NCBI GenBank assembly: GCA_963827475.1
Contig: CAWHAZ010000005.1
Span: 1,002,851 to 1,066,850 of the forward strand
Reading direction: 5' to 3'
DNA: 64,000 nucleotides
Source: an uncultured Chloroflexia bacterium
GTDB taxonomy: Bacteria; Chloroflexota; Limnocylindria; QHBO01
In this document: positions 45,809-64,000 of the stretch, in pieces
Layout: each line of letters starts with the position of its first letter
Numbering within the stretch: position 1 is the stretch's first letter
Made by a program: the position numbers and the translations under genes
Notes under the pieces: model-generated
Database searches by the model: none
Told to the model about the DNA's origin: nothing
What the model saw: only the letters and a program-made list of their open reading frames with translations

Positions 45809-45838
45809 ATGTCACCTTTCGGCCGGATATCGCCTCTA
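45809..45838 (+). promoter_or_regulatory. Putative ECF sigma promoter upstream of the cupin gene
   Basis: 27/30 identical to the sequence directly upstream of the ECF sigma gene (54900..54929, minus strand). Confidence 0.65.
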
Positions 45839-45993
45839 GCGGGTCATGGACAGTCGGATTGGGAATTGAATGCTGAGGCACTTCCGGGCCTCATACAGAG
45901 TGAACGCACGACCGCAGAAGGAAGGTCTCACCTGGAGTCAGCTCTTCTGGAACCCGCCACCCGGCACAGCCTGGACAGTTGAGGAGAAATCTC

Positions 45994-46482
45994 ATGACGA
46001 CCAAGACAGCGCGCCAGGCGATTCGCAGTCCGTTCCTGGCGCTGGCGCTCTTCGCGCTACTGGCAGGTACGGTGCTTGCGACGCCTTCGAACCTCTTCGT
46101 TGGGACGCCGTTGGCGCGGGGAACCACGAGCGAGTCGGTGCATTTCAACACCGGCGAGGTCAAATTTCAGACGAAGGGGCCGGTGCTGTTGGCCACGAAC
46201 TCGGTCACGATCCAGCCTGGCGGCTCATCCGGGTGGCATTTCCACCCCGGTGTCACCCTGGTTAGCGTGGCCTCGGGCACCGTGGTCCGCTATGACGCCC
46301 ACTGCATGGCCACCGTGTTTCCCGCAGGCACTGCGTTCATCGAGTCGGGCAACCACCCGCTCAACGTTCGCAACGAGGGCACCGAGCCGGCGGTCAACAT
46401 CGTCACCTTCATCGTTGCGGCTGGGACGACAAATGCTGGCTTGCGGATCGACAGTCCCAACCCCGGCTGTCCACAGAACTAG
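45994..46482 (+). CDS. Secreted cupin domain protein
   Basis: Signal peptide; GWHFHPG...E..NH cupin motif; GAGGAG RBS. Confidence 0.85.
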   Translation: MTTKTARQAIRSPFLALALFALLAGTVLATPSNLFVGTPLARGTTSESVHFNTGEVKFQTKGPVLLATNSVTIQPGGSSGWHFHPGVTLVSVASGTVVRYDAHCMATVFPAGTAFIESGNHPLNVRNEGTEPAVNIVTFIVAAGTTNAGLRIDSPNPGCPQN

Positions 46483-46534
46483 GGATCCTGAGAAGGAGGC
46501 GGGCCCACGGACTGGAAGGCCCGCCTTCCGGAAT

Positions 46535-46570
46535 GGGTAGAGCCCCGGCCTCGCGGCCGGGGCTCTACCC
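46535..46570. terminator. groEL terminator hairpin
   Basis: GGGTAGAGCCCCGGCC-TCGC-GGCCGGGGCTCTACCC, 16-bp stem just after the groEL stop. Confidence 0.8.
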
Positions 46571-46586
46571 GTTGGATCGGAGTGGA

Positions 46587-48743
<2,157 letters not shown>

Positions 48744-48747
<4 letters not shown>

Positions 48748-49560
48748 GGCGAACCGATCGCACCGATGCGCCACAGGCGCTGGTAGGCGCCGCGCGTCGC
48801 GGCGCCTACGTCCTCCGGCTCCTCGCCGCGGAGGCGGGCAATCACCGCGGCGGTCCGCAGGACGGTGGTCGGTTCGTTGCGCTCGTCCTTCGAGACGCCG
48901 AGGTACGGGGAGTCGGTCTCGACCAGAAGGTTGGTCGGCGGGATGGCGGCCGCGGCGTCTCGTGGGCCGGTGTTCTTCGGGAAGCTGACCGGCAGCGCGA
49001 AGGAGATGAGGTAGCCGGCTCCAACCAGGGCCGCCGCCATCGCCGCGTCGCCGGAGAAGGCATGGAGGATGCCGGGCACCGCGGCTCCGTGCGTGGCGTG
49101 GTCGACGAGTGCGCCCGTCACCTCGGCGTGGGCCTCGCGATCGTGGACGAGGACCGGCTTCCGGACCCGCGCGGCCAGGTCCAGCTGGCGAGCCAGGGCG
49201 TCCCGCTGGACGTCCGGCGGGGAGAGGTTGCGATAGAAGTCCAGCCCGATCTCCCCGACCGCGATGACACCGGGATCGGCGGCGAGAGCCTCCACCGCCG
49301 CCCAGTCGGCATCTGTGGCGGCTGCCACGTAATGAGGATGGATGCCGGCTGCCGCGTCGATGAGGTCGGGATGCCGTGCAGCCAGCGCAAGCGCGGCCTC
49401 GGACGACGCGCGGTCCCAACCCGGGACGAGCATTCGATCGATGCCGGCCGAACGGGCACGGTCCAGGACCGCATCGAGGTCGAGGGCGAATACCTCGTGC
49501 TGGAGGTGAGCGTGGGAATCGACGATCCCCGGCAGCCGCTCCGGGACGACGAGGCGGCTC
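48744..49560 (-). CDS. tatD: TatD family hydrolase (start uncertain)
   Basis: DSHAHL, GIHPH, GEIGLDFY, ETDSPY; downstream of metG. Confidence 0.92.
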
Positions 49561-51166
49561 AGGAGGCGGTTGCCTCGCCGGCCGGCTCCTCGGCCGCGGG
49601 TTCGTCCTCGATGCGCGGGAAGAGCGGAACGGGCGGGCCGGTCCGACGCTCCCCCGCCTCGGCGCCCCACGCCAGCAGGATGTCCAGGCCGGGGCCACCT
49701 ATCCCACGGTGGTCGTATGGGGGCGGGGTCCCGACCTGGCGGAGGAGGTCAGCGGAGGCGGTGGGGCAGAACGGTGCGAGGAGGTGTCCGAGGATGCGAC
49801 AGGCCTCACCCATCGTGGCCAGCACGACCGCCACGCGGTCCGACTCGCCCGCTTTGTGCAGCGCCCACGGGGCCTGAGACTCGGCATAGCCGTTCGCGGC
49901 CCGGGTGAGCGAGGAGAGGGCGTGCAGCGCCTCGTCGAAATGAAGACGCTCCACGGCAGCCCGGTAGTCGGCCACCGCACTCTCGGCCACCCGCTGGAGC
50001 TCCCCATCGGCATCGGTCTGGACGGAGTCCGGTCCGATCCCGGCCAGGTCCGGCAGGGTGCCGCCCAGATATCGGTCCGCCATGGAGACCGTCCGGTTCA
50101 CGAGGTTGCCGAGGTCGTTGGCGAGGTCGGCGTTGTAGCGGCGGACCATTCCGTCAACGGTGACGTCGCCGTCGCGGTCGAACGAGATCTCGCGCAGGAC
50201 GAGGTATCGCACACCGTCCACGCCAAAGGTCGCGATCGCCTGGTCCGGGTCGAGGATGTTGCCCCGCGTCTTGGACATCTTCTCGCCGCGCATGAGCATG
50301 AAGCCGTGGGCGAAGACCTTCCGCGGGAGCGGAAGGTCCGCGCTCATGAGCATCGCCGGCCAGTACAGGCAGTGGAAGCGGGTGATGTTCTTGCCGATGA
50401 CGTGGACGTCGGCCGGCCACCAATGCTCGAACGCCTCCGGGTCCCCGGGAAAGCCGGCGCCGGTGACGTAGTTGGTGAGGGCGTCGAACCAAACGTAGAT
50501 CCGATGCGCCTCGTCGCCGGGGAACGGGATCCCCCACCCCGTGCCCGACCGGCTCACCGAGAAGTCCTGGAGCCCTTCCGAGAGCCAGCCGAGGACCTCG
50601 TTGCGGAAGTGCTCCGGCTCGCAGAAGTCCGGATTCGACCGATAGAGCTCCTCGAGCGGCGCCTGGTACTTGCTCAGGGCGAAAAACCAGTTCTCCTCCT
50701 CCAGCCACTGGAGCTCGAGGGTGGGATGGTCCGGGCATCGTCCGTCGACGATCTGCTGATCGGTCTTGAACTCGTTGTCGCCGGTGCAGTACCAGCCGGC
50801 GTACGTGCCGCGGTAGATGTCGCCGGCGGCCTGGGCGCGGCGGACCATTTCGATCGAGGCCTCCCGGTGGTCGGCGTCGGTGGTCCGGATGAATCGGTCG
50901 TAGCTGATGTCGAACTTGTCGAACCCGGCCTGCCAGTTGGCGGCCCAGCCGTCGACCAGCGCCCGCGGGTCCGTGTTGCGCTCCGAGGCGAGCCGCTCGA
51001 CATTGGCCGAGTGCTCGTCCATGCCGGTCAGGAAGCGCACCTCTTTGCCTGTAAGCCGCTGGTAACGGGCCAGTACGTCGGCGCCGACCGCTTCGAACAG
51101 GGAGTGAAGGGCCGGTCCGGGGGTGGGATAGAAGATGGCGGTGGTGAGGTAGAACCGATCGGTCAC
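49559..51166 (-). CDS. metG: Methionine--tRNA ligase (short form, atypical HIGH motif)
   Basis: FLTGMDEH, FIRTT, YVWFDAL.NY, KMSKT, LANDLGNL; metG-tatD synteny. Confidence 0.9.
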   Translation of the reverse strand: MTDRFYLTTAIFYPTPGPALHSLFEAVGADVLARYQRLTGKEVRFLTGMDEHSANVERLASERNTDPRALVDGWAANWQAGFDKFDISYDRFIRTTDADHREASIEMVRRAQAAGDIYRGTYAGWYCTGDNEFKTDQQIVDGRCPDHPTLELQWLEEENWFFALSKYQAPLEELYRSNPDFCEPEHFRNEVLGWLSEGLQDFSVSRSGTGWGIPFPGDEAHRIYVWFDALTNYVTGAGFPGDPEAFEHWWPADVHVIGKNITRFHCLYWPAMLMSADLPLPRKVFAHGFMLMRGEKMSKTRGNILDPDQAIATFGVDGVRYLVLREISFDRDGDVTVDGMVRRYNADLANDLGNLVNRTVSMADRYLGGTLPDLAGIGPDSVQTDADGELQRVAESAVADYRAAVERLHFDEALHALSSLTRAANGYAESQAPWALHKAGESDRVAVVLATMGEACRILGHLLAPFCPTASADLLRQVGTPPPYDHRGIGGPGLDILLAWGAEAGERRTGPPVPLFPRIEDEPAAEEPAGEATAS

Positions 51167-51969
51167 GCCGCCGTTTCCTCGGTTGGTCCGTCCGCCGGTG
51201 CCTCAGCCTCGCTCGCCGGCCCGTGAGGGCGTGCCTTTGGCCAGTACAGCTCCTTCCGGACCTGCTCGGGCGGGAATCCACGCTCGGTCGCGATCTCGTC
51301 GATGGCGGTGATCATGTCCGGGTTCCCGCAGAGATACAGCGTGGTGTTGGCGGCGGTCAGGCCACGGCGATCCAGCTCCGCCGCCACGACCGTTTCCACC
51401 CGACCCGTCAACCCGGTCCAGTTCGGGTTCTCGTTCGGTCGCGACACGGTCCCCGCGTAGTGGAGGGGCAGCCGCTGATCGACCTCGATCTCGGTCAGCC
51501 ATTCCCGCCACGCCAGGTCGTGCTCGTGGCTCACGCCGTGGAGGAGATGGATCTCGCGGGACTCCCCGGTGGCGAGCAAGGTCTCGATCATGCTCATGAA
51601 CGGGGCGAGACCGGTCCCCGACGCGATGAACAGGCACTTCTTCCCGTCGTCCTGGAGGATGAACTTGCCCTTCGCGCCCTTCATGAACAGGGGATCACCG
51701 AGCTTGAGATCCCAGAAGAGTGGGGTGAACTCGCCCTCCGGGACGTGACGGATGAAGAACTCGTACTCGCTCAGGTCGGTGGATGGCGAGGAGATGGACA
51801 TGGGCCGGAGGATCGTCTTCCCGTCGGGGAGGTCCAGCCCCAGGGTGTTGTACTGGCCCGGAAGGAACGGGAATGGCTCCGCGTCCAGGGCCACGGCGCA
51901 GATGACGAGACCGTCGGACACGACCTCCCATCGACTCAGCCGCGCGTTGTACGGGTATCGCTCGCTCAT
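51163..51969 (-). CDS. Ferredoxin--NADP+ reductase family oxidoreductase
   Basis: RPMSISS, GTGLAPF, YLCGNPDM. Confidence 0.9.
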   Translation of the reverse strand: MSERYPYNARLSRWEVVSDGLVICAVALDAEPFPFLPGQYNTLGLDLPDGKTILRPMSISSPSTDLSEYEFFIRHVPEGEFTPLFWDLKLGDPLFMKGAKGKFILQDDGKKCLFIASGTGLAPFMSMIETLLATGESREIHLLHGVSHEHDLAWREWLTEIEVDQRLPLHYAGTVSRPNENPNWTGLTGRVETVVAAELDRRGLTAANTTLYLCGNPDMITAIDEIATERGFPPEQVRKELYWPKARPHGPASEAEAPADGPTEETAA

Positions 51970-51981
51970 CGCCGTTCCGGA

Positions 51982-52357
51982 TCATCGCGGCGCGTCGGCG
52001 AGCCGCCCTGGGGGCGGACCGATGGCCGCGGGCGGCCAGTATATCGGCGCCGGCTGCGAACTCAGGCCGGGACCTTTCGCGAGCTCCGCTTCGATGCGCT
52101 CTTGCTCTGCCGATCGGCAGGCCCGGAATCCGCGACGCTTCAGGCGCGTGTCCTCTGGGTCGTGGGGCCACGCGCCGCCGTAGACCAGTGGGGTGCCGTT
52201 CGGCCCGGCGGCGGTGGCTTCCACGGTGGACGAGAACTCCGGCGTTTCGCCCTCGTCCTCGATCGTGAACGCCGTCACCGACCTGCGGGACGGCGGACTT
52301 ATCCGCCTCCCGACAGAGAAGCTCGCCGCCGCGGTCGACGACCAGAATGACCTTCAT
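51982..52357 (-). CDS. Hypothetical protein; apparent frameshift near 52272
   Basis: MKVILVVD... from ATG 52357 appears to continue in ORF 51982..52278. Confidence 0.45.
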
Positions 52358-52364
52358 CGGCGTC

Positions 52365-52828
52365 ACCCGGACGACGAAGCCCTCGACCGATCCGCGCCAC
52401 GCCCCGGTCGGCGCGCCGCGGGACTCGATGAACTCCTTGAAGCGCTTCAGGTCGCCCTCCACCGTTTGGTCGAGGACGCCGAGGAAGTCACCGAGATTCT
52501 CGATTGGCGTCTCCGGATCGACGTCCATCTCGAGCGTGATGCGTGTCACGCCGTCGGAGACGCGGTCGAAGCGCACGACTCCGGCGTTCCGCGCGCCGCT
52601 TGTGCTCGTCCACGCCACCATCTCATCCGGACGCTGGGCCACGATCCTTGCGTCCCAATCCTTTTGCTGCCCGGCGATCTCTGCCTTCCAGTGCAGGTGC
52701 GCATCGTCCAGCTGCTGGACCGACTTCACCCCTTCCATGAAGCGCGGGAACTCCTCGAACTGCGTCCACTGGTCATATGCCACCCTGACAGGGACGTTGA
52801 CCTCAAGGGTCTTCTCGACTCGGCTCAT
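52365..52828 (-). CDS. SRPBCC (polyketide cyclase-like) protein; 3' end uncertain
   Basis: AYDQWTQFEEFPRFM...DLKRFKEFIE...GAWRG; GAGGAG RBS. Confidence 0.88.
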
Positions 52829-53123
52829 CAGATTCTCCTCGGCTTGGGCGGGGGCCTCTCGCAGCATCGGTGGCAGCTCGCGCTTCGGACGTAACGACCG
52901 CGAACGCCCACATTCCAGCTTGGTATCAACCGATAGCCGTCGCCATGTCCCGGCCGCGGCCCGACCTCGCCGAGGCGCCAAGGATTCTTGCTCGCCAGAT
53001 CGAGTTACGGCTCGATGCGAACCGAGTCCGAGACTCGCTGGAAAGGCGCCAAGGAATCGGGGTCTTAGGCGACGGCGATCAGGAACCGGGCCCCATGCCC
53101 GTTCCGGTAGCGCCGGCTGGGGC

Positions 53124-54416
53124 TCATTGGTCCCCAGGGTCGTACGTCTCGGCTGAGCGGTCATCACCGCCTGCCACCAGCACGGTCCCGTCGTCCAGGA
53201 GGGTGGCGGTGTGCCCGTGCCGCGGCGTGGTCATGTTCGCCGCAATCGTCCAGGTGCCCGTGCCCGGGTCGTACAGCTCGGCCCCGAGCCCCTCGTCTGG
53301 GCGCGTGCCACTGATGATCGAGCCGACGACGAGCACCCGGCCGTCGGGCAGCAGGGTGGCTGGCGCTCCGTAGCGCGCTTGCGTCATGTCTGGAGTTGCA
53401 GCCCATCTTCCTGTGATCGGGTCGTACAACTCCGCAGACCTCGTCGCGCTCTCGGATGCGGCGAAGAGAACCCTTCCGTCCAGCAGCAGGGTGGCGCTGG
53501 CTTCGGCGTGTCCAAAGACCATCGGCTCGGTGGCGGTCCACGTTCCGGTGCTCGGGTCGTACACCTCGGCGGTACCCGCACCCCCACCCATGAAGCCGCC
53601 TGCGACGAGCACGGTGCCATCTGGAAGCAGCACAGCGGCGTGGTATGCATGGGGAGTGATCATCGACCCGGTCGCGGTCCACGACCCGTTCCGCGGGTCG
53701 TACAGCTCGGCGGACACCTCGGGCGGGCCGCCGCTGCCGTGATCGACGCTGATGCCGCCGGCTACCAGCACGCGGCCGTCGGGCAGCAGCGTGGCGGTAT
53801 GGGCGCCGCGACCGGCGGCCAGGTTCGGGGCTGTGGTCCATGACCCGGAGTTCGGGTCGTACAGCTCGGCGGAGTCCAGCGGGGTCGTGCCGCCACTGCC
53901 CTGAGCGTCGGGCACCGGGTCAATTCCGCCGGCCACCAGCACCGTGCCATCGGGCAGCAGCGTCGCCGTGTGCCGATATCTCACGTTGGTCATCGACTGG
54001 GTGGCGGCCCACGACCGAGTGCTCGGGTCGTAGAGCTCGGCGGCGCTGGCGTTTTCCAAGTCGCTGCCCGCCACCAGCACCCGACCGTCGAGCAGCAGGG
54101 TTGCGGTGTGCAACCAGTGCGGTGTCACCAGATCTCCAGTAGGCGTCCAGGTGCCGACGGGGGCGGCCGACTCGGACGTTGGCGAGGCGTCGGGCGTCGG
54201 CGTGGCTTCGGGCGTTCCGATCGTCGGCCCCCACAGCAAGCCGAGTCCCACGATGAGCGTGATGACAATCGCAGCCGTCGCCAGACTCAGCGGCAGCATG
54301 TAGTTGGTCCTGATCTGAGACGCGGGCTCGGCGACCGCGCGAGCCATGGCCTCGCCCCACAGCTCGGGCATCTGCACTCGATCAAGGCTTCGGAATCGGT
54401 CGTTCACGTCAGTCAT
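53124..54416 (-). CDS. Single-TM Kelch-repeat protein, putative anti-sigma/sensor
   Basis: About six HTATLL.DG.VLV.GG...AELYDP repeats after a TM helix; coupled to the ECF sigma gene. Confidence 0.88.
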   Translation of the reverse strand: MTDVNDRFRSLDRVQMPELWGEAMARAVAEPASQIRTNYMLPLSLATAAIVITLIVGLGLLWGPTIGTPEATPTPDASPTSESAAPVGTWTPTGDLVTPHWLHTATLLLDGRVLVAGSDLENASAAELYDPSTRSWAATQSMTNVRYRHTATLLPDGTVLVAGGIDPVPDAQGSGGTTPLDSAELYDPNSGSWTTAPNLAAGRGAHTATLLPDGRVLVAGGISVDHGSGGPPEVSAELYDPRNGSWTATGSMITPHAYHAAVLLPDGTVLVAGGFMGGGAGTAEVYDPSTGTWTATEPMVFGHAEASATLLLDGRVLFAASESATRSAELYDPITGRWAATPDMTQARYGAPATLLPDGRVLVVGSIISGTRPDEGLGAELYDPGTGTWTIAANMTTPRHGHTATLLDDGTVLVAGGDDRSAETYDPGDQ

Positions 54417-54889
54417 CGCGATTCACCCAGGAGATGCTTGAGCCGCCTTCGTCCGCGGCTGAGGTTGGCTCGCACCGCAAGCTGCGACATGCCGGTCTTG
54501 TTGGCGATCTCGCGGATCGGTGCGTCGACGTAGTAGAAGAGGATGACGGCGGTGCGCTGCTTCTCGGGCAGTCCGGCCAGGGCGTCTAGCAGGTCCGCAT
54601 CGACCTCGGTGTCGACATAGCCGGTGTCCGGCATGTGCGAGCTCGTGCGCGACCGCTGCTTGAGCTCGCCTGCGGCGATGCGGAAGCCCGTACGCCAGAC
54701 CCAGGCTCGCGGATCGCGGATGGCGGCGCGGCCGCGAATGGCCCGCGCGAAGGCCTCCGCGACGGCGTCGCTGGCGATGTCCGGGTCGCGGCTGAATGCG
54801 AGGAGGGCGCGCCACAAGCGCTCGGCTTCCTGGCGGTAGACCGCCTCCAGCTGAGCGAGGTCGTCGGCGACTGCCGTCACTGTCACCAC
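54413..54889 (-). CDS. ECF-type RNA polymerase sigma factor
   Basis: Region 2 ASDAVAEAF..AWVWR and region 4 LAGLPEKQR...REIA...SRGRRRL. Confidence 0.92.
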   Translation of the reverse strand: MVTVTAVADDLAQLEAVYRQEAERLWRALLAFSRDPDIASDAVAEAFARAIRGRAAIRDPRAWVWRTGFRIAAGELKQRSRTSSHMPDTGYVDTEVDADLLDALAGLPEKQRTAVILFYYVDAPIREIANKTGMSQLAVRANLSRGRRRLKHLLGESR

Positions 54890-54899
54890 TATGTCCTGT

Positions 54900-54929
54900 T
54901 AGAGCCGAAATCCGGCAGAAAGGTGACAT
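54900..54929 (-). promoter_or_regulatory. Putative autoregulated ECF promoter (TGTCAC...CTCTA)
   Basis: About 10 nt before the sigma GTG; near-identical copy at 45809..45838. Confidence 0.65.
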
Positions 54930-54961
54930 TTGAGGGGAGACCGCCAGGGCCCCGGCGCCCA

Positions 54962-55016
54962 ACGACCACCGCGGCTCGCGAGGCCCCCAGAGAGGTCGAT
55001 ACTGCCCGCGAGACCC
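54962..55016 (+). repeat. Array repeat R0 (degenerate; left extension only)
   Basis: ACGACCACCGCGGCT...CCCAGAGAGGTCGAT matches the left part of R2/R5/R9. Confidence 0.6.
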
Positions 55017-55039
55017 AATTAGCTTGAGGCGGAGCCGAA

Positions 55040-55693
55040 ATGAAATCCAACCCTTTGATGGCCGTGTCCGGGTGGGAGGCGTTCATGCACGGCGTCTTCG
55101 CGATCGCGGTCACGCTCCTGGTGCTCGATATTCGCGTTCCCGACGCCGCCGAGATTGACAGCGGGGCGGCGCTCATCGACGCCCTCGTCGAGGAGATGCC
55201 GCGTTATCTCGCCTACGCATTCGGCTTCCTCTTCGTGGGCACCTACTGGCTCGCTACGCACCGATTCAATGGCTGGATGCGTGGCGTCGACCATTGGGGC
55301 CTCGTCTTGGGGCTCCTGTACCTGATGGTCATCTCGGCGGTACCGTTCGTGACTGCGCTGCTCGCTGAGTACATCGGCTTGGACGACGGTCGGGACAAGG
55401 TTGGGCTCGTCGTCTTCGCCTCCTGGCAGTTGGTCCTCTCGCTCTTGGCCATCGCCAACTTTCGTTACGGAGCGCACAGAGGGCGACTCCTCAAGCCGAC
55501 GATCGAGGAGGCGGCACTACGGACGTATTTCCGCTTCGCCATCATCGGTCCAGTGACCTGGATCGCTGCGATCCTGACCGCTCTCTTTATTGGTAGCGCC
55601 GCGACGTTGATCCTGATGGCGGTCAGCCTGGTGATCTTCCTTGTGGTCGAGCTACCCGCGCCGGTCGGTGACCAGGAGGGCGCCGCGACCTAG
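55040..55693 (+). CDS. TMEM175/DUF1211 family membrane protein
   Basis: EAFMHGVFAIAVTLLVLDI; YWLATHR; PFVTALL. Confidence 0.85.
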   Translation: MKSNPLMAVSGWEAFMHGVFAIAVTLLVLDIRVPDAAEIDSGAALIDALVEEMPRYLAYAFGFLFVGTYWLATHRFNGWMRGVDHWGLVLGLLYLMVISAVPFVTALLAEYIGLDDGRDKVGLVVFASWQLVLSLLAIANFRYGAHRGRLLKPTIEEAALRTYFRFAIIGPVTWIAAILTALFIGSAATLILMAVSLVIFLVVELPAPVGDQEGAAT

Positions 55694-55719
55694 GACGTCG
55701 GCTCGGGAGGGGGCGGACA

Positions 55720-55885
55720 TCACATCGCGACCACGGCTTCCAGCGGCTCGTCTGAGGCGCCGTTGACCGGGGTTTCGGTCTCGTCCTGCGCGGCCTGGGC
55801 CTCCTTGGCGTATTCCTTCTTGCCGCGGCCGGAGAGCATCTCAAGCTGACTGACCACGACCTCGGTCTTCCAGTGCCTCTTGCGC
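55720..55885 (-). pseudogene. 3' remnant of a single-stranded DNA-binding protein gene
   Basis: Reads KRHWKTEVVVSQLEMLSGRGKKEYA...EPLEAVVAM*, resembling the last OB strands plus acidic tail of SSB; no 5' half. Confidence 0.65.
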
Positions 55886-56001
55886 CACTGTAAGCATCTG
55901 CCACACCGATTCGTAGCGGCGCCCTTGACCGTTATCTATTGGCGCGTCCATCTTGGGCCCATCAATTCGCTGCGATCACGATGGAGGAGGGCTCGACCCC
56001 A

Positions 56002-56685
56002 ATGGAGCGTGACGACCCCGCCTACGAGGGCCAGCGTGAGTACACCCCGCTCTTCCTCAAGATCTACGACCCCTTGATTCTTGGCTTCTTCATGCCAGTC
56101 GTGTGGCGGTGCCCGACGACTCGCCTCGTGGAGGGATACCGGGAGCACCTCGGCCACCGGCACCTCGACGTGGGTCCGGGTACTGGCTACTTTCTGGCGC
56201 GAGCCGGTATGCCGGACGGCAGCCCTGTCACCCTCCTCGACCCCAACGTGCACGTCCTCGATCACGCATCCCGGCGGTTGAAACGCCTGGACCTCACGAC
56301 CATCGAGGCCGACGTGCGCAAACCACTTCCCGTCGACGGGCTGTTCGACTCCGCCGCGCTCAATGGCGTGCTCCATTGCCTGCCAGGACCGCTCCTTCGC
56401 AAGGCTGCTGCCGTTGCCAACGTGGCCGCCGTCCTCGCTCCGACTGGCGTCCTCTTCGGTGCATCGATCCTCGGGCTTTCCGGGCGACATACCTGGTTGT
56501 CTCGGAGCATTCTCGAGGCCAACAACCGGCGGGGCACCTTCGACAACCTCGGCGACACCCAGGCGGGCCTCGGCGAGATCCTCGAGGCATCGTTCGAGCG
56601 GGTGGAGCTGGAGACTGTCGGCTCAATGGCGATCTTCGCAGCCACGAATCCGCGCATGAAGCCGTCGACTGGCATGCCACGCTAG
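56002..56685 (+). CDS. Class I SAM-dependent methyltransferase
   Basis: HLDVGPGTGYFL, VLHCLPG; GGAGGAGG RBS. Confidence 0.88.
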   Translation: MERDDPAYEGQREYTPLFLKIYDPLILGFFMPVVWRCPTTRLVEGYREHLGHRHLDVGPGTGYFLARAGMPDGSPVTLLDPNVHVLDHASRRLKRLDLTTIEADVRKPLPVDGLFDSAALNGVLHCLPGPLLRKAAAVANVAAVLAPTGVLFGASILGLSGRHTWLSRSILEANNRRGTFDNLGDTQAGLGEILEASFERVELETVGSMAIFAATNPRMKPSTGMPR

Positions 56686-57050
56686 CTACCGCGACCTGGC
56701 GACCTCGGGCGCTTCCGCCACCAGGCGACGATGCCGATGATCGCCCCGACCAGGAGAATCCCGAGGCTGATCCCGACGAACCCCACGGTGCCCGAGCTGA
56801 TGTCGCAGGTCGGGTCAGACGAGCAATTCAACGCGACGCCAACCATCAACCAGAGCCACACCGCCCCGATCCCGCTGACCCAACCGGACACGAACACCAA
56901 CTGCCATCGACCCACGATTCCGAAGGCGAGCGCGAGCCCTGCGATCAGGTACGCGATCAGCCCAACCACGAAGAAGGCGTAACCAAGGGCCAGCCCGAAG
57001 GCGAACCCCGCGAGCCAGCGCACCCATCCACGACTCCAGAGCTGGATCAT
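56682..57050 (-). CDS. Small multi-TM membrane protein
   Basis: Four hydrophobic segments and a basic C-terminus. Confidence 0.7.
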   Translation of the reverse strand: MIQLWSRGWVRWLAGFAFGLALGYAFFVVGLIAYLIAGLALAFGIVGRWQLVFVSGWVSGIGAVWLWLMVGVALNCSSDPTCDISSGTVGFVGISLGILLVGAIIGIVAWWRKRPRSPGRGS

Positions 57051-57100
57051 GTTTGGAGCCGCTCCATTTCTCGAGGATACCGAGACAATCGGATCGCGAG

Positions 57101-57153
57101 CTCCCGACGCCCACCTCGGATCCTGTAGGCTCCCCGAGAGGTCGAATCGCCGG
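57101..57153 (+). repeat. Array repeat R1 (left extension, truncated before the core)
   Basis: CTCCCGACGCCCACCTCGG...GGCTCCCCGAGAGGTCGAATCGCCGG, close to R2. Confidence 0.85.
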
Positions 57154-57201
57154 CTGCGCAGCTTTCTTCGTGCCCTCCCGTCGGGGTACCGTAGCTCGAG
57201 C

Positions 57202-58137
57202 ATGGCGCAGACAGGCATCGCCCTGGCCTTCGTGGCGGTCGTCCTTGCCGCCTGCACGAGTGGTAGCGCGTCCCCGACCCCTTCGGGATCGGACGCTAGC
57301 CCGGCGGTACCCGAACCCTCCCCCAGCGCCTCGGCGAGCGCACCCGAATCCACGTCAGCAAGCCCACTCGCGGGTTCCTGCAGCGGGAACATGCTGGTGG
57401 TGGATTGCTTTGGCCGGGTGACCGCCGACGCGGTCAAGCTGCGCACGGGGCCGGGCCTCGACGCACCTCAGGTCCTTGAGCACGTGGCGGATGGGTCACC
57501 CGTCCCGGTGTTCGTCGGTCGAACCAATGGACGCGAGCAGGTCTACGTCATCGACGGGCCGCGTCAGGCCGACGGCCTCGACTGGTACCAGGTGGGGGTC
57601 ATGAACACCGGGCAGGAGCGGTCAGTTGGGCCGCTGTACGTCGGCTGGGCGGCGAGTGGCGACGGAACCGATCCGTGGCTCGTCCCCGAGGATCTGTGCC
57701 CACCAGCCGGCCCGGTCGAACTCGCCGACATGACCTATGCCCGGTGGGACTCGACGTGGGCGATCCACCTCGGTTGCTTCCGTGATCAGGTGCTCACCCT
57801 CCGCGGCTGGTTCCCGATTCTGCCGCCCGGATCAGGGTTCGAGATTCCCTATGACGTGGACGGCAGCTGTTTCGCGGAGCCCGCGTTCCTGCAGTGCGGC
57901 CCGTACAACAAGGACATTCGCACGAGTGAGATGGGCTTCTTTGATGAGAGAAACACCGACCGCCTGAACTTCACGGTGGACCCAGCCACGGGCCTTGAGC
58001 TACCTGAGCGTGGCCAATGGATCGAGATCACTGGCTCGTTCGACCATCCGGCTTCGCAGCAATGCGGCCCCGAGGCCGGGGGCATCCTGCACTGTCGTGC
58101 CGTGTTCGTCGCTACCGCTGTTTCGGTCAGTAACTAG
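57202..58137 (+). CDS. Cys-rich lipoprotein with an SH3b-like segment
   Basis: Lipobox LAAC; VKLRTGPG...DGLDWYQV...GWAA. Confidence 0.75.
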   Translation: MAQTGIALAFVAVVLAACTSGSASPTPSGSDASPAVPEPSPSASASAPESTSASPLAGSCSGNMLVVDCFGRVTADAVKLRTGPGLDAPQVLEHVADGSPVPVFVGRTNGREQVYVIDGPRQADGLDWYQVGVMNTGQERSVGPLYVGWAASGDGTDPWLVPEDLCPPAGPVELADMTYARWDSTWAIHLGCFRDQVLTLRGWFPILPPGSGFEIPYDVDGSCFAEPAFLQCGPYNKDIRTSEMGFFDERNTDRLNFTVDPATGLELPERGQWIEITGSFDHPASQQCGPEAGGILHCRAVFVATAVSVSN

Positions 58138-58158
58138 CGGCTGGCACCTCGACGCCGG

Positions 58159-58246
58159 CTCCCGACGCCCACCTCGGTTCCCTAGGCTCCCCGAGTTGTC
58201 GATTCGCCGCGAGTCCGGCCGGGGCGAACTATGCGTTATGGGAGAT
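58159..58246 (+). repeat. Array repeat R2 (full)
   Basis: Left extension plus core GCCGGGGCGAA-CTATGCG-TTATGGGAGAT. Confidence 0.9.
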
Positions 58247-58257
58247 GAGCGCAGTTC

Positions 58258-58689
58258 TCAGCGTCGTTCGGCCTCGCTTCGGGCAAGCGCCTCAAGGATC
58301 GCAGTGATGACCTCGGTCGTGGAGGCCCCAGGCAGGTCCAGACGGATCGTCGCCGACTCGGCTATGAGCGGGTTGTACCGTCCGGCCGTGGCGGCAGCAT
58401 CGCGGGAGTCGGTCCGGACCAGCACGATCGGCTTCTGGCTCCGGTACGCGTAGCCGACCTCCCAGCTCGTGCCAGAGTCCGGGTCAGGCCCGTCCATGAT
58501 CGCCACCAGCCCATCGGCCCAGTCGATCCCGCCGACGTCCCTTGCGAAGATGCCGGCGGCGTCCCGGCCGGGCTCCTGCTCCTGCGGCACGAAGATCTCG
58601 TATCCGGCCGCTCGCAGGCCCGCGACGACCTCAGCGTTCCAGGCGCGCTCGGGCGTCGTGAACAGGGGTCCCGCGAAGTAGAGCTTCAT
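58258..58689 (-). CDS. Nucleoside 2-deoxyribosyltransferase family protein
   Basis: KLYFAGPLF, DVGGIDWAD, DSGTSWEVGYA. Confidence 0.9.
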   Translation of the reverse strand: MKLYFAGPLFTTPERAWNAEVVAGLRAAGYEIFVPQEQEPGRDAAGIFARDVGGIDWADGLVAIMDGPDPDSGTSWEVGYAYRSQKPIVLVRTDSRDAAATAGRYNPLIAESATIRLDLPGASTTEVITAILEALARSEAERR

Positions 58690-58766
58690 CGGGCGAGTAT
58701 CGCGGACGGCACTCACCCGCGACAGTCGCGGTGCCGCCCAGCCACTAGCCATCGTTCGGTTGATCC

Positions 58767-58795
58767 GCCGGGGCGAACTTGCGTTTATGGGGTAC
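58767..58795 (+). repeat. Array repeat R3 (core only)
   Basis: GCCGGGGCGAA-CTTGCGT-TTATGGGGTAC. Confidence 0.85.
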
Positions 58796-58826
58796 GCGGC
58801 CGGCGGGGTGTCTATCATCGGGTGGG

Positions 58827-58906
58827 GCGGCGATAGCTCAGCTAGGAAGAGCGCGGCTCTGCTTCGGCAACCGAGGTCGCCGGATCGTTCCCGGCTCGCC
58901 GCGCCA
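58827..58906 (+). ncRNA. tRNA-like RNA with a non-canonical anticodon arm and encoded CCA
   Basis: Acceptor GCGGCGA/TCGCCGC, D arm GCTC-AGCTAGGAA-GAGC, variable loop AGGTC, T arm GCCGG-ATCGTTC-CCGGC, G-CCA end; TATCAT at 58813. Confidence 0.8.
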
Positions 58907-58921
58907 TTCACGAGTCGGGTC

Positions 58922-58950
58922 GCCGGGGCGAATATCCGCGATTGGGGTTT
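58922..58950 (+). repeat. Array repeat R4 (core only, right arm degenerate)
   Basis: GCCGGGGCGAA-TATCCGC-GATTGGGGTTT. Confidence 0.75.
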
Positions 58951-59031
58951 GAGCCGGGACCCGTGGGACTCCCAGCGGCGCTTGTGCCACCGTCAAGTTC
59001 GGCCCAGGGTGGCTTCACTGGCCGCGCGACG

Positions 59032-59844
59032 CTAGCCCGGACCCATGCGGAGGCTTACCACCTCGGTCGTGTCGTGCTTGCCCTTGAGCTCCAGGTTGCG
59101 CGGCTCGAGGTTCGGGTCCAGGCCGGCCGCGACGGCGGCATCGGTCGAGACGATGATCTCGCCGGTCGCGGCCTGGGCCGCCAGGCGGGCGGTGGTGTTG
59201 ACGACGTCACCGACCACCGTGATCTCGACGTGGCCCCCCTCGCCGATGGCCCCGAACCACACCTTCCCGGTATGGACTCCGGCGCCCACCGGCACCCACG
59301 GCCCGGCCGGATCGGTGTGGCCGGTGGCTGCCAGCAGCTCCTCCGCCGCCGCAACCGCGCGCCCGGCGTGATTCTGCCCCAGGAAAGGAGGAAAGGCCGC
59401 GACCAGCTCGTCCCCCACGAACTTGTCGACGATGCCGCCCTGCGCGAATACCGCCTTTGCCGCAACGGTGTAAAAGCGGTCGAGGGTCGCGCGGAACGCG
59501 GTCGGGGTCATGCCTTCGGCCAGCGTGGTCGATCCGCGGATATCCGCGAACAGCAGCGAGGCGTCGACTTCTGCCCCGCCGTGATGCTTCAGCAGCACGT
59601 TCTCGCACGAGGTGCACACGGTCGGGTTGACCCGCGACTGACGCTTGCCAAAGAGTCGAAGGACGCGCCCGCCGGGGCCCGCGAACGGGAATGCGCACAA
59701 CTGACAGCGGGGATTCGCCGGAATGCGGCTGATGATCGGCCGGACGGAGCGGAATGACGAGTCGGGGCTCTCGAGGTAGTCGCGCCAGAACTGCTCTTCA
59801 GATGGATCGCTGGATGCTGCCGGTGGTGCGCCTCCGCTTCTCAC
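59032..59844 (-). CDS. Class III adenylate/guanylate cyclase with an N-terminal CxxC...CxxC domain
   Basis: LLFADIRGST, VDKFVGDE, GDVVNTTARL; CQLC and CTSC. Confidence 0.92.
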   Translation of the reverse strand: MRSGGAPPAASSDPSEEQFWRDYLESPDSSFRSVRPIISRIPANPRCQLCAFPFAGPGGRVLRLFGKRQSRVNPTVCTSCENVLLKHHGGAEVDASLLFADIRGSTTLAEGMTPTAFRATLDRFYTVAAKAVFAQGGIVDKFVGDELVAAFPPFLGQNHAGRAVAAAEELLAATGHTDPAGPWVPVGAGVHTGKVWFGAIGEGGHVEITVVGDVVNTTARLAAQAATGEIIVSTDAAVAAGLDPNLEPRNLELKGKHDTTEVVSLRMGPG

Positions 59845-59880
59845 CGCCGCATTATCCGGGGTCCCGAGGAATCAGGTACT

Positions 59881-59964
59881 TCCGACGCCCACCGCGGCTA
59901 CCGCGGGTCCTATGAGGTCGATCGCCCGGGAACTACGCCGGGGCGAACCTAGCTAATGGGGGGT
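59881..59964 (+). repeat. Array repeat R5 (full)
   Basis: CCGACGCCCACC...GAGGTCGATCGCC...GCCGGGGCGAA-CCTAGC-TAATGGGGGGT. Confidence 0.88.
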
Positions 59965-60064
59965 ATGGTGCCGCGACTTCTGAGGACGGGACGCCAGCCG
60001 CTCGCCATCCGAGGATGGCGCTGCCACGGAGCACCGGCCCGACGCCTTCGGCCTCCTAGCGGCG

Positions 60065-60883
60065 CTAGCCGTTAGGCCAACCCCGGATGACCTGATCCAC
60101 GAATTCCGCGATGTCGTTGGCGAGTCTTTCGGGTTGCTCCCACAGGACCAAGTGGCCTGTCGATTCATAGGTCACCATGCGCGATCGCGGAATCGCAGCC
60201 GCGAGCTTGAGCTCCTCGCCGTGCGGTAGCCCCTTGTCACGGTCACCCCAGATGATGAGCGTCGGCGCCTGAATCGTGCCGGTCTCAGTCGGCACGGCGG
60301 CTTCAACAAGACCCGCGAGGGCAAGCTTCCACACGCGTGCCGGCATTCGCACCCCGTCATCGATGCGGTCCGCCAGGTACTCCGCCGGGACCGGCTGGTG
60401 GAACTCGAACCAGTCCAACGAGGACCGAACCCATTCGCGATCGATCGGATCGGTCAGACGGTCCACCTCGTCCGCGAACGGGGGGCGCCCCCCATGAAGA
60501 CTGCGTGGCGTGCCTACCAGGACGAGCCCCAGCGTGCGCGATGGCTCATCGACGGCAAATCGCTGGGCCACGTACCCACCGCTCGAGCTGCCCACCAAGA
60601 TGCAAGGCCCGAGTCCCAAGGTGTCCTGGAAGGCGATCAGATCCGCGACGAAGTCGGCCATTGCGTAGCCATCCGCTGGCTTGTCGGCGTCGCCGTGGCC
60701 GCGCTGATCCATCGCGAAGGCGTGAACGGTGCGCGGCAGAAGTGGTAGCAGACGGCTAAAACTGCCCCGCGACTCGCCCCACGCGTGAATGAGGAGCAGC
60801 GGCACTCCGGACTTGCCACCCTCCTCCATGTATGGGAGGGAGACGCCAGTCGAAAGGCGAGTGATCTCCACGCTGCTCACCAT
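60065..60883 (-). CDS. Alpha/beta hydrolase
   Basis: LLIHAW, DQRGHG, GSSSGG, GHLVLWEQP. Confidence 0.9.
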   Translation of the reverse strand: MVSSVEITRLSTGVSLPYMEEGGKSGVPLLLIHAWGESRGSFSRLLPLLPRTVHAFAMDQRGHGDADKPADGYAMADFVADLIAFQDTLGLGPCILVGSSSGGYVAQRFAVDEPSRTLGLVLVGTPRSLHGGRPPFADEVDRLTDPIDREWVRSSLDWFEFHQPVPAEYLADRIDDGVRMPARVWKLALAGLVEAAVPTETGTIQAPTLIIWGDRDKGLPHGEELKLAAAIPRSRMVTYESTGHLVLWEQPERLANDIAEFVDQVIRGWPNG

Positions 60884-60955
60884 GGAGTTGTACGCGGCAC
60901 CCATTGCGGGCGCAAGGCCGGCGACGCCAGGCGCTCGCCATCCAGCGGCAGATCG

Positions 60956-60984
60956 GCTGGGGCGAATATCGCGCCGTGGTGACA
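60956..60984 (+). repeat. Array repeat R6 (core only)
   Basis: GCTGGGGCGAA-TATCGCG-CCGTGGTGACA, similar to the R7 core. Confidence 0.75.
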
Positions 60985-61014
60985 GGTACGACGGGTTCCT
61001 GGGACGCTTCGCGT

Positions 61015-61401
61015 TCAGCCGGGTCCGCGAAGGAAGCCATCGAAATAATCTGGCTGAACAGTCAACTTGACCCCCGACGCCGAGGCAGCCTCGCGCATCT
61101 GCTCGAGCGCGGCATTGCTAGGCGTTCCATAGATCTCCCAGCCGAGGGGTACCAGGACCTCAAATGCCACTCGGCTTCTCTCCTCCGATCCGTGGCCATG
61201 AAGGTCCATCGACTCCGCATCGGGGAAGACGTGGACTATCGTCGCCTCGCTCCCGTTAGGGCTGAGGTAGAAGAGGTACGCGAGGGTGCGGGGCTTCTCC
61301 GCGTGCAGCTGCTGGGTAACTGTGTGTGCTAGGTCCTTGTAGGCCTTAAGCATGCGCTGCTTGACCCGGAAGTGGCTGATGAAGACGATCGGGTCAGCCA
61401 T
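61015..61401 (-). CDS. Dimeric alpha/beta barrel (ABM-like) protein
   Basis: FISHFRV...PRTLAY...IVHVFPDAESMDLH; GAGGA RBS; paralog of 62499..62900. Confidence 0.75.
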   Translation of the reverse strand: MADPIVFISHFRVKQRMLKAYKDLAHTVTQQLHAEKPRTLAYLFYLSPNGSEATIVHVFPDAESMDLHGHGSEERSRVAFEVLVPLGWEIYGTPSNAALEQMREAASASGVKLTVQPDYFDGFLRGPG

Positions 61402-61420
61402 TTGTCACCGTCGATTCCTC

Positions 61421-62239
<819 letters not shown>

Positions 62240-62313
62240 TGCCAAATAGTAATGGCCCCTACGCCGGCGCTCGACCGACCGGGGTCGCCTGCACGCTACC
62301 AATACGCAGCCCG

Positions 62314-62400
62314 CTCCCCACCGTCCATCTCGGCTTCCGCGGGTGCCTAGAGGTCAATCGCCGGGAGTCCCGCTGGGGCGAATGTCGCGTTGTGGTAACA
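62314..62400 (+). repeat. Array repeat R7 (full)
   Basis: ...AGAGGTCAATCGCCGGGAGTCCC-GCTGGGGCGAA-TGTCGCG-TTGTGGTAACA. Confidence 0.88.
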
Positions 62401-62498
62401 GAGCGCGTCGGGTTCTAGGCGGTCTGCAAGCCACGTGGCAGCGTAGCCTCAGCTGATAGCCAAGCCTGCGCGTGCGCGCCGAGCGGTGGCATCGCTCG

Positions 62499-62900
62499 CT
62501 AAACGTCCATTTCTGACGGTGCTGACGGCCGCAGAAAGCCCGACGTGAACTCCGGGTAGACCCTCAGGGGAACGCCCGCCTGCTTTGCTGCCGCTTCGAG
62601 CGCCGCCCGCGTCGCTGCGCCGGGACTTCCGTAGATCTCCCAGCCGAGAGGCTCGAACAGCGGCATCGCCCGCGGACTGTGGGCTTTGGCTCGCTCAGCA
62701 TGAATGTCCATCGCGTCGGCATCGCCGAACACGTGGATGATGGTCAGCTCGTCGCCCGGTCCGAGGAATTGGAGGTACACGAGGGTCCGCGGCCAATCCG
62801 CCTCGATCCTTGGCGTCACTTCGGCGGCCAGCTGCTGGTAGGCGTCGCGCTGGCCAGGCCTGATGCGGAAACGACTGATGAAGGCAACCGGTTCGGCCAT
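62499..62900 (-). CDS. Dimeric alpha/beta barrel (ABM-like) protein
   Basis: FISRFRI...PRTLVY...IIHVFGDADAMDIH; paralog of 61015..61401. Confidence 0.75.
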   Translation of the reverse strand: MAEPVAFISRFRIRPGQRDAYQQLAAEVTPRIEADWPRTLVYLQFLGPGDELTIIHVFGDADAMDIHAERAKAHSPRAMPLFEPLGWEIYGSPGAATRAALEAAAKQAGVPLRVYPEFTSGFLRPSAPSEMDV

Positions 62901-62982
62901 GCTTCATGATAACGGCCGGGATCGGGTGCACCGCCCGATCCCTTCCGGATTAGCCACTCATTGGCCGCTTACGGACACATTG

Positions 62983-63011
62983 GCAGGGGCGAGTATTGAG
63001 TTATGGGCGTT
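62983..63011 (+). repeat. Array repeat R8 (core only)
   Basis: GCAGGGGCGAG-TATTGAG-TTATGGGCGTT. Confidence 0.7.
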
Positions 63012-63183
63012 GTTCTGCTGTCGCACCGGCGGTATCCGGTGGCGCTTAGGCCACCGTCAGGATCTGCCCACGCACTGGCGATCTAGACGGCAGCCTCGTC
63101 TCGCAGAACGAGCACCTCGGGCGCCAGCGGTCCCCGCCCTCGGCTGGCGTCGCCAGTAGCTCGACGGCGCATGTCCGGGCCAG

Positions 63184-63750
63184 TCAGTCAGCCCGCTCCA
63201 GGACGAGCGGATCCGGGCAGTAGGAGCCCGGGTCCGGGCAGCGCGGTCCGAGCACCATCGGTTCGCGATCCTCACGCAGGAAGATCTCACCCGCGGCGCC
63301 GAACTCGATGAGCATCCGCAGAGGGGAGTAGGGTGTCGCCGGGAGGCCCCCTGGCCCCAGCATCAAGATCTCCCCGGTGATCACGAAGTCGGACCCGATC
63401 ACACCGCTGAGGCCCTGAACCTGGTCCGGCCGCTGACCGATGGGTCGGGTCTCGACGTCCTCGACCTGCCCATCGCCCCACACGCAGTCTCCCTGCGTGC
63501 GAATCCACCAGGTCATCGGCTCTCCGACGCGGTCGACTTCGATCCACTGCCCGTCGAGCACGATGCGCTCCCCGTCCGGACCGCGCAGGTCCATCGCCTC
63601 GCACCCGGGCGGCAGGCCGCTCAGTGCGGCCTCCGAGGGGCTTGCGGAGGGCTGGTCCGATGGCGACGGCGACGTCGACGGTCCGCAGCCGGACATCAAC
63701 AGCAGGAGCCCAAGCAAGGGAAGGGTTCGAAATCCGGCGAGATTCAGCAC
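63184..63750 (-). CDS. Hypothetical lipoprotein
   Basis: Lipobox MSGC, Ser/Pro linker, four further Cys; TATCTT 6 nt before GTG. Confidence 0.75.
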   Translation of the reverse strand: MLNLAGFRTLPLLGLLLLMSGCGPSTSPSPSDQPSASPSEAALSGLPPGCEAMDLRGPDGERIVLDGQWIEVDRVGEPMTWWIRTQGDCVWGDGQVEDVETRPIGQRPDQVQGLSGVIGSDFVITGEILMLGPGGLPATPYSPLRMLIEFGAAGEIFLREDREPMVLGPRCPDPGSYCPDPLVLERAD

Positions 63751-63790
63751 CGACGGAAGATAACCGCTGCGCCAGGCGGGCGAGCCCAGC

Positions 63791-63877
63791 CCCCGACGCC
63801 CACCCGGGCTACCGCGCGGGCCCCGAGAGGCCGAATCGCCGGGAGTCCGGCTGGGGCGAACCTACGTTATGGGGGTA
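63791..63877 (+). repeat. Array repeat R9 (full)
   Basis: CCCCGACGCCCACC...GAGAGGCCGAATCGCCGGGAGTCCG-GCTGGGGCGAA-CCTACG-TTATGGGGGTA. Confidence 0.9.
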
Positions 63878-64000
63878 CCGCCAGCATCAGCCCGAGGGCT
63901 GAGGCCACCCATCGTCCTCGCGTCATGGGCGGAACCCTAGTGAGTCCAACGCTTCTCGCCCATCCCCCAACCGATGGTCGACGCGACTCCCATCCGTTCA

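Follow-up and report, generated by a model that had tools for sequence, protein, structure and literature searches.

Towards the end of a 64,000-nucleotide (nt) stretch of a Limnocylindria genome (genome G000, contig C5, positions 1002851–1066850; hereafter the window), small and unrelated genes follow one another with a recurring repeat between them, which raises the question of how such an array was assembled and what the repeat does in it. An interpretation made from the sequence alone, here called the original prediction, had proposed a cassette-accretion system with a site type of its own, serviced by a recombinase encoded elsewhere. The safest statement is that the region is an additive island anchored in the gene ssb2 and built by site-specific insertion, and that it is one of a genus-wide set of integrase-less islands, present also at tRNA genes, that share a repeat (whose two parts we call L and R) at their unit boundaries. 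The original prediction is partly supported, because accretion, here with an insertion scar, and the missing local recombinase hold, L/R being no more than a possible recombination site.

The Limnocylindria, a group of uncultured Chloroflexota, are abundant in soil; their genomes are small, and few mobile elements can be recognised in them. The G000 assembly comprises seven contigs (1.92 Mb, 70% G+C) and is rated 90% complete; the final base of the window is also the final base of contig C5, where the readable part of the array ends. The other G-numbered genomes are members of the same genus and were compared at the level of species rather than strains; C-numbers denote the contigs of each genome. 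Genes were called by third-position G+C, and the open reading frame (ORF) calls are crude. One genome flagged as unpublished (G016) is included in the tallies of 13 of 17, 14 of 18 and 18 of 18 genomes given below and in no other claim.

An insertion scar in ssb2 and a two-part repeat

The backbone genes tatD, metG and fnr are conserved up to window position 52050, beyond which the content differs in every relative (12-kb BLAST against the genus). The variation between relatives that the cassette reading called for is thus present between conserved flanks, and genes of the segment recur at other loci. The distance from fnr to ssb2 is 2.7–6.2 kb in four relatives, compared with more than 12 kb, and still unfinished, in G000. 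In keeping with the original prediction, the region is also less rich in G+C (64–68% at 54–64 kb, versus 69–74% over most of 0–46 kb).

A 160-nt piece at 55720–55883 recurs in all genomes of the genus and is the 3′ end of an ssb gene. The full gene, ssb2, has 137 codons in G017, and the window fragment (55723–55881, minus strand; tblastn) corresponds to residues 86–137. The intact ssb2 of G000 lies at C3:3–413; contig C3 begins at its stop codon, its first 160 nt (C3:1–160) are 96% identical to the window fragment, and beyond ssb2 it carries rsmI, nadE and an oligopeptide transporter gene. The end of contig C5 would lead, perhaps via more units, to contig C3. Another SSB-family gene, at C5:945103, is probably the housekeeping copy.

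Three relatives (G012, G008 and G014) have an intact ssb2 followed by further 3′ fragments (two in G012, one each in the others), 0.5–1.5 kb apart, in the same orientation and starting at residue 86. In all five fragments that start there (one in G000, four in the three relatives), ssb homology ends at one point, where a shared motif takes over; the end of the ssb sequence and this motif together make up a palindrome that we call C. An ssb remnant in G017 is shorter, diverges earlier and is without C. C has arms of 8–9 base pairs (bp) around a centre of 2–4 nt, and its left arm consists of the ssb codons for K-R-H-W; the intact ssb2 carries the left arm only. In the window, this joint between ssb fragment and foreign DNA lies at 55870–55904 on the plus strand (repeat family D11, alignment; hidden Markov model (HMM) E = 7e-10). 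Conservative site-specific integration, as carried out by tyrosine-integrase elements, usually leaves a scar of this form: the end of the target is duplicated, and the inner edge of the duplicate is fixed at an inverted repeat. We infer that the ssb2 duplication with its joint at C is such a scar; among the window repeats, it is C, not L or R, that supplies the sole joint placeable at a recombination point. The ssb scar, the palindrome and the L loci elsewhere in the genome had all been missed in the original prediction.

The ten repeat sites of the array (R1–R10), their intergenic location and their single orientation were borne out by repeat finding, alignment and ORF calls. They had been taken for one family; although conserved sites do recur, the alignment resolves them into two adjoining parts, L then R, rather than one uniform repeat. 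L is a nested inverted repeat of ~62 nt, with a conserved left block, a short variable middle that is usually self-complementary and a conserved right block, and its outer ends are inverted repeats of one another. R, of ~40 nt, directly follows L where both are present; it has a short symmetric centre and, in some copies, a TTATG-like right side, a motif not kept in four of the eight window copies. The window holds six L, eight R and three C copies, all L and R copies being on the plus strand, between called ORFs and in direct orientation. L stands alone in the divergent intergenic regions at 54952–55012 (R1; nhmmer E = 1e-11) and 57097–57153 (R2; E = 1e-15). The two parts occur together at 58155–58249 (R3; L 58155–58213, R 58207–58249), between convergent genes and 8 nt beyond the stop codon of a nucleoside 2-deoxyribosyltransferase (NDT)-like gene, and, from the profile search, at 59878–59967 (R6; L 59878–59931, R 59926–59967), 62315–62403 (R8; L 62315–62367, R 62361–62403) and 63787–63878 (R10; L 63787–63846, R 63839–63878). 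R alone was found by the same search at 58757–58796 (R4), 58914–58953 (R5), 60946–60987 (R7) and 62972–63015 (R9). Two further C copies, both on the plus strand, found with the HMM and without ssb sequence, each follow an R copy by about 50 nt: that at 58972–59006 lies ~50 nt after R5 and 26 nt beyond a cyclase stop codon, that at 63036–63070 ~53 nt after R9. A by-eye reading in which a degenerate C follows every R was rejected, the HMM giving E > 0.5 for all but the three copies listed.

Profile searches of the whole genome (L, E = 1e-8 to 1e-15, with nhmmer values of 1e-9 to 1e-16 for the six window copies; R, E = 1e-4 to 1e-8) agree with the original prediction that the first 53 kb of the window hold no copies of L or R. 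Nor are copies scattered genome-wide: a profile scan found 11 good L copies at three loci (six in the window, four at C5:746990–750720, with a weak fifth beside them, and one at C5:901360) and nine R copies at two loci (eight in the window, one at C5:749174). The idea of a single private locus fails, the same repeat being present in tRNA-anchored islands and across the genus. BLAST with one full repeat copy found matches in 13 of 17 other genomes of the genus, in none of seven from other genera of the family and, weakly, in one of 16 elsewhere in the class; a covariance model of L gave 46 matches in 14 of 18 genus genomes (0–11 per genome, with most in G000), and species other than G000 have mostly L without R. 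Of 45 distinct L copies, 27 adjoin a called stop codon; stop-adjacent sides number 35 overall, versus 20 start-adjacent ones, and the orientation of L relative to neighbouring genes is not fixed. A 24-nt word drew ten short metagenome contigs (1.0–3.6 kb) with L between small ORFs and no enzyme on any of them. On viral contigs, a 15-nt L word matched at least 118 stretches, none of the 80 loci examined fitting the L model, and a two-block pattern matched 13 stretches, none with a full L and one locus with a 21-nt partial match to the model.

Islands at tRNA genes and units shared between species

The counts on anchors, on polarity at tRNA loci and on shared units that follow come from the loci examined around L copies, not from whole genomes. 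In G000, the L cluster at C5:747–751 kb begins 65 nt after a tRNA-Pro(ggg) gene; a perfect 49-nt copy of the 3′ half of that tRNA, from the anticodon arm to the end, lies 4.9 kb further on, and a degenerate third copy (the second partial one) follows 1.1 kb past the first partial copy. The 4.9-kb island contains five L copies in one orientation, genes without a Pfam family and no integrase. A comparable arrangement is present in G015, where a 1.3-kb insert with two L copies separates a tRNA-Cys gene from a 44-nt copy of its 3′ half (98% identical); G000 displays the empty site, with the neighbouring tRNA genes 13 nt apart, and no tyrosine recombinase was found in the G015 island. By hand count, a tRNA gene, complete or partial, or ssb2 is found within ~1.5 kb of about half of some 25 distinct L places. 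L lies downstream of and opposite to the anchor in all four ssb2 loci with L among 80 species, as also in G017 and G015, and at most tRNA loci, with two exceptions in which it is upstream and co-oriented.

Two further features were observed at or near tRNA genes. Between the first and the degenerate second partial tRNA-Pro lie three tandem paralogous small Cys-rich ORFs (L001:10925–11900, that is, G000:C5:751925–752900). In several genomes of the genus, a 10-nt word, GAGCACGAAA, usually with a hairpin behind it, is found within a few bases of tRNA 3′ ends on their downstream side, as well as ahead of tRNA-Val and behind some protein genes (G000:C5:746937; L038:690; L033, L024, L035, L036 and L043), and may be a processing or termination signal.

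Sequence comparison indicates that units move or are exchanged, with L often at the unit edge, because shared units recur at different loci, some with their edge at L. One unit of L plus a gene is common to G002 and G008 at different loci and begins at the first base of L, and a 96-codon gene for a two-helix membrane protein, with its stop codon 3 nt from L, is found together with L at four loci, in four genomes. The lipoprotein unit at 63111–63804 has a 91% identical counterpart in G011, adjoined on its left by a partial tRNA-Cys; at the other end, homology stops ~20 nt into L and is followed by unrelated sequence and then by another L. Between flanks 79–87% identical, a variable spot at window 45039–46587 holds a glycine-zipper gene and a cupin gene without L in G000, a lipoprotein gene on the minus strand between two L copies in G008, and L, a different lipoprotein gene on the plus strand and a partial L in G014. 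The module of an ECF sigma factor and a Kelch-repeat protein is 85–87% identical in G002, where it adjoins tRNA-Val, and in G009; its homology ends at 54929, ~25 nt before L and just upstream of its likely own promoter. The exact crossover is not placeable at 79–91% identity, and in two cases the break lies outside L.

Reads were of little help here. A search of sequencing runs listed 21, each with at most 16% of the sampled words; those containing parts of the window are labelled soil or rhizosphere and contain small shares only, which are not informative on absence, habitat or expression. Three DNA runs yielded contigs of 150–390 nt at a depth of 2–5, and no piece from these or from one RNA-library run bridges a unit boundary. 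The RNA-library run, from relatives, did give joints between 58187–58189 or 59908 and 63821–63827 (sides of 21–30 letters) that pass from one L copy to another; we take them for mis-joins between repeat copies rather than for excision at L.

The recombinase and the role of the repeat

The original prediction that no recombinase is encoded nearby holds. The G000 assembly contains two tyrosine recombinases (PF00589), at C5:698864 and C5:726955, ~300 kb from the array; both are Xer-like and, as a XerC/XerD pair would be, are present at similar spacing in 18 of 18 genus genomes. No serine recombinase was found in the 90%-complete assembly, nor any match to Y1 HUH (PF01797) or IS110 (PF01548) transposases. 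The integrase-bearing islands of relatives were rejected as a source, since the seven such loci examined lie at other tRNA genes and are without L; one of the seven, in G010, contains the remnant of an integrase at a distance of 6 kb from L copies. Binning easily loses mobile helpers, so the enzyme may be encoded by one of these.

On the model that we favour, 52.05–64.0 kb of the window would be part of a flexible island between the fnr–metG block and ssb2 (next to rsmI), grown through conservative, site-specific insertions that always entered ssb2 at codon 86. Each of them would bring its own copy of the last 52 ssb2 codons and so displace 3′ fragments with C as their inner edge. The interior of the island would consist of small units of one or two genes (0.15–1.4 kb) punctuated by L/R, with L in one polarity relative to the anchor and mostly abutting stop codons. 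Since L-punctuated units also fill islands flanked by 44–49-nt duplications of tRNA 3′ halves, a single family of small integrase-less elements seems to have been added in tandem at several anchors, with the recombinase acting in trans. The joints would have been made by a tyrosine-type recombinase and the units would have arrived one by one. L/R would be a conserved end module of the units, which may include accessory or secondary sites for recombination and could double as a two-way terminator; that L and R belong to the site region of incoming units, the fuller form of the model, is a claim for and against which we find the case evenly balanced.

Several observations weigh against this model. 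Breakpoints between species, expected at the repeat in the original prediction, fall in or at L in some pairs only and tens of bases away in others. The L copies at 54952 and 57097 lie in divergent promoter regions, not at gene ends, and a 1841-nt metagenome contig (L204) carries two L copies that face in opposite directions and lie 1.1 kb apart, no other inverted pair having been seen. C stands beside only two of the eight window R copies, a third case being the R copy at the tRNA-Pro island. Single-stranded DNA of ten L strands shows no significant fold (z −0.9 to +1.0), and covariation in L is weak, its score being reached by 25 of 500 shuffles (22 of 500 in another run). Several anchors (ssb2 and tRNA-Pro, -Cys, -Leu and -Val) would require several specificities or an enzyme that reads structure. 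Searches of the window island, of the tRNA-Pro island and of the opening 9 kb of C3 brought up no integrase or other candidate enzyme, and the two Xer-like genes are core genes. Finally, extra ssb fragments are rare (four of 80 Limnocylindria ssb2 loci), and the junction of the contig end with C3 is an inference.

The strongest competitor, which we consider possible if less probable than the site-region model, regards L/R as cis-acting punctuation (a two-way terminator, an insulator or a protein-binding site) that travels with genes; the islands would stem from ordinary integrase-bearing elements at tRNA genes and ssb2 that later became integrase-less, and only C and the tRNA half-sites would be scars. 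The excess of stop-adjacent copies reported above fits it, and where units are shared, L accompanies the gene whose stop codon borders it, no matter on which side. L is a nested inverted repeat and could therefore act on either strand. Only C and the tRNA halves have been placed at recombination points, and the islands of some relatives at other tRNA genes, which lack L, do bear integrases. Yet L has no T-run, and a terminator scan found no T-tailed site at any L, R or C, just as the only promoter-like site in a consensus scan of 54800–64000 is not at the repeat. Folding energies are no better than those of shuffled sequence. A terminator would need neither to keep one polarity relative to an anchor nor to preserve the same 60 nt behind unrelated genes; two window copies lie between divergent gene starts, and at the variable spot described above direct L copies bracket different genes in G008 and G014. 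A role of L as promoter of the ECF sigma gene was rejected, since the sigma operon keeps its own upstream motif in G002 and G009, with homology ending before L.

A more ambitious version of the site-region model, which we advance tentatively and place slightly below punctuation, is a genus-specific cassette capture in which single-gene units with a composite site (L+R+C) would be inserted and exchanged at hairpin-prone targets (the anticodon arms of several tRNA genes and the palindrome-like point of ssb2), through a trans-acting recombinase unlinked to the array, either the host Xer-like pair or an unrecognised enzyme. If true, the system would do the work of an integron while differing from it in its sites and targets and in having no platform gene.

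L, or L+R, could also be a selfish non-autonomous element of the REP or miniature inverted-repeat transposable element (MITE) type that inserts in intergenic DNA of flexible regions, a reading that we hold to be unlikely. It is short, intergenic and rich in inverted repeats, varies from 0 to 11 copies between genomes of one genus and is often found at contig ends or truncated, but its copies are few, clustered at three loci and in one orientation within an island. No terminal inverted repeats with target-site duplications were seen, the assembly is devoid of the Y1 HUH and IS110 transposases, and the viral contigs scanned yielded no L.

A structured RNA (leader, small RNA or riboswitch) that recurs ahead of or behind island genes is considerably less probable again. 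In a two-helix model of L, the consensus ends form 11 pairs and an inner helix seven, with 78% of cells paired versus 31–53% with slid partners, and RNA-library contigs contain relatives of L, DNA in that library not being excluded. Against it, 22% of cells remain unpaired, RNAalifold finds only three pairs, the covariation score is within reach of shuffles and the orientation to neighbouring genes is not fixed; in a search of 46000–64000 against Rfam 15 (E up to 1), the sole match was a chance snoRNA (E = 0.46) inside a cyclase gene, and none fell on the repeat. L as a conserved or known RNA structure was rejected on these grounds.

Integron cassettes typically pair one or two promoter-poor genes with a trailing imperfect inverted repeat (60–100 nt), in one polarity and with variable content. 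The array resembles them in its small units of one or two genes, each followed by such a repeat, in the single polarity and in content that varies between species, and the L consensus hairpin, with two helices, an unpaired spacer, bulged bases and a variable tip, recalls the layout of attC. Nevertheless, a true, integrase-less integron array with divergent attC sites is the least probable reading of all: the attC core motifs quoted in the original prediction are absent from L, whose left end is CTCCCGAC-like and of which only copy 54952 has a matching heptamer; there is no intI, nor any IntI-like gene, the only two tyrosine recombinases of the assembly being core and Xer-like; insertion is in ssb2 and tRNA genes rather than at an attI next to intI; the repeat occurs at several chromosomal loci; and single-strand folds are no better than shuffled on either strand (ten L+R strands, z −1.2 to +1.0), for which reason L as an attC-like hairpin was rejected. 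No report of Limnocylindria with an integron was found.

The claim that the sites are neither attC nor pdif or dif is upheld by motifs, folds and a comparison with dif. The array shares with Xer-dependent elements (IMEX at dif, pdif modules on Acinetobacter plasmids) modules without a recombinase of their own, an Xer-like pair as the only recombinases found, and the short symmetric centre of R with its occasional TTATG-like right side. It differs in that the likely dif is 120 kb away, that R, even in its best copy, matches it in only 12 of 22 arm positions and that orientation does not alternate. This likely chromosomal dif of the genus is a 28-nt word with a TTATG right arm (G000:C5:881379, G013:C1:1315904 and G010:C7:857113), and in the single-contig genome G013 its core word lies 2.3 kb from the point opposite dnaA. 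R as a dif-like site was rejected, the best R copy being inferior to the candidate at C5:881379. The stoperators and start-associated sequences of temperate actinophages are likewise short conserved motifs between many genes of a mobile region, in one polarity; here, by contrast, there are no phage genes, the repeat measures 60–100 nt rather than 13–17 nt, and its distance to start codons is not fixed.

The tycheposons of Prochlorococcus come closest, being islands seeded at tRNA genes by serial integration that leaves partial tRNAs behind (bioRxiv 10.1101/2020.12.28.424599). As in the passages of that preprint, a small streamlined genome carries islands at tRNA 3′ ends flanked by partial target copies, successive integrations push older units inwards, degenerate remnants persist and the cargo consists of small adaptive genes. 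Direct repeats of the 3′ part of the target are present at ssb2 (160 nt, 96%), tRNA-Pro (49 nt, 100%) and tRNA-Cys of G015 (44 nt, 98%), and tandem units lie between partial target copies, at ssb2 in G012, G008 and G014 and before the second, degenerate tRNA-Pro half. Unlike tycheposons as described in those passages, the islands have no integrase or replication gene in or beside them, their units go down to one gene, a protein-coding anchor is used besides tRNA genes, and units are punctuated by an L/R repeat of a kind on which the passages are silent. Neither the titles and abstract openings searched nor the passages of the preprint give an account of this repeat or of ssb as an anchor.

The locus thus combines a definite insertion scar in a protein-coding anchor with a repeat that, throughout a genus, delimits the units of several islands, and no enzyme has come into view. 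Should the repeat be a recombination site, it would represent a new cassette system and offer a tractable site pair for trials with candidate enzymes; if it is punctuation only, it would still provide a handle for flexible islands and raise the question of how one 60-nt sequence came to stand behind unrelated genes.

Genes and other features of the array

The last conserved backbone gene to the left of the variable segment encodes an fnr-like oxidoreductase (51163–51969, minus strand; Pfam NAD_binding_1 and FAD_binding_6), with homology to four relatives stopping at ~52050. The leader or promoter stretch upstream of it (52000–52053, minus strand) forms the left edge of the segment and, in BLAST with 18 genomes of the genus, is 89–100% identical between species that share ~80–85% identity in their coding DNA; it has hairpin potential and no Rfam match. 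The sigma–Kelch module (53124–54889, minus strand; Pfam), which relatives carry at another locus, comprises the Kelch-repeat protein (53124–54416) and the ECF sigma factor (54413–54889). The Kelch gene is the source of strong internal direct repeats (families D1–D5), which are coding and unrelated to L/R.

The interval between the first two repeats, the contents of which the original prediction had left out, holds a TMEM175-family membrane protein (55040–55693, plus; Pfam PF06736, E = 3e-20), the ssb2 fragment, an S-adenosylmethionine (SAM)-dependent methyltransferase (55939–56685, plus; Pfam) and a small membrane protein (56682–57050, minus) of high third-position G+C, without a Pfam match and 80% identical in G002. 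Among the genes that had been listed, the NDT-like protein (58258–58689, minus; Pfam PF05014, E = 5e-23), two class III nucleotide cyclases and an alpha/beta hydrolase (60065–60904, minus; Pfam, NCBIfam) were confirmed, whereas one of the two ABM-like proteins (62499–62900, minus; Pfam PF03992, E = 0.002) falls below the Pfam cut-off and the other (61015–61401, minus) has no Pfam, PADLOC or NCBIfam match. The putative lipoproteins at 57202–58137 (plus; 83% identical in G007 without its flanks) and 63184–63750 (minus; within the unit shared with G011) are recognised by a lipobox-like N-terminus only and match no family. The 3′ end of a further gene, read from the sequence, is cut by the contig end (63939–64000, minus).

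Both cyclases (59032–59844, minus; Pfam PF00211, PADLOC PycC E = 5e-17; and 61421–62302, minus; Pfam, PycC profile E = 3e-13) are paralogous and match Pycsar PycC profiles, the one at 61421–62302 with the small family-less protein directly downstream. A role in defence is conceivable for them, as is one in ordinary signalling.

Flanked by two R copies, the tRNA-like RNA of the original prediction is called by ARAGORN at 58827–58906 (plus strand) as tRNA-Ser(gct), but has no Rfam tRNA match at E up to 1. Its acceptor, D and T arms are readable, a TTCG-capped hairpin replaces the anticodon arm and the CCA is encoded. That it is the remnant of a real tRNA was rejected, as it has no similarity to the other 47 tRNA calls of the genome. 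Elsewhere in G000, four tandem paralogues (69–75% DNA identity) of the lipoprotein gene at 63184–63750 occupy C5:101243–103459, a locus without L.

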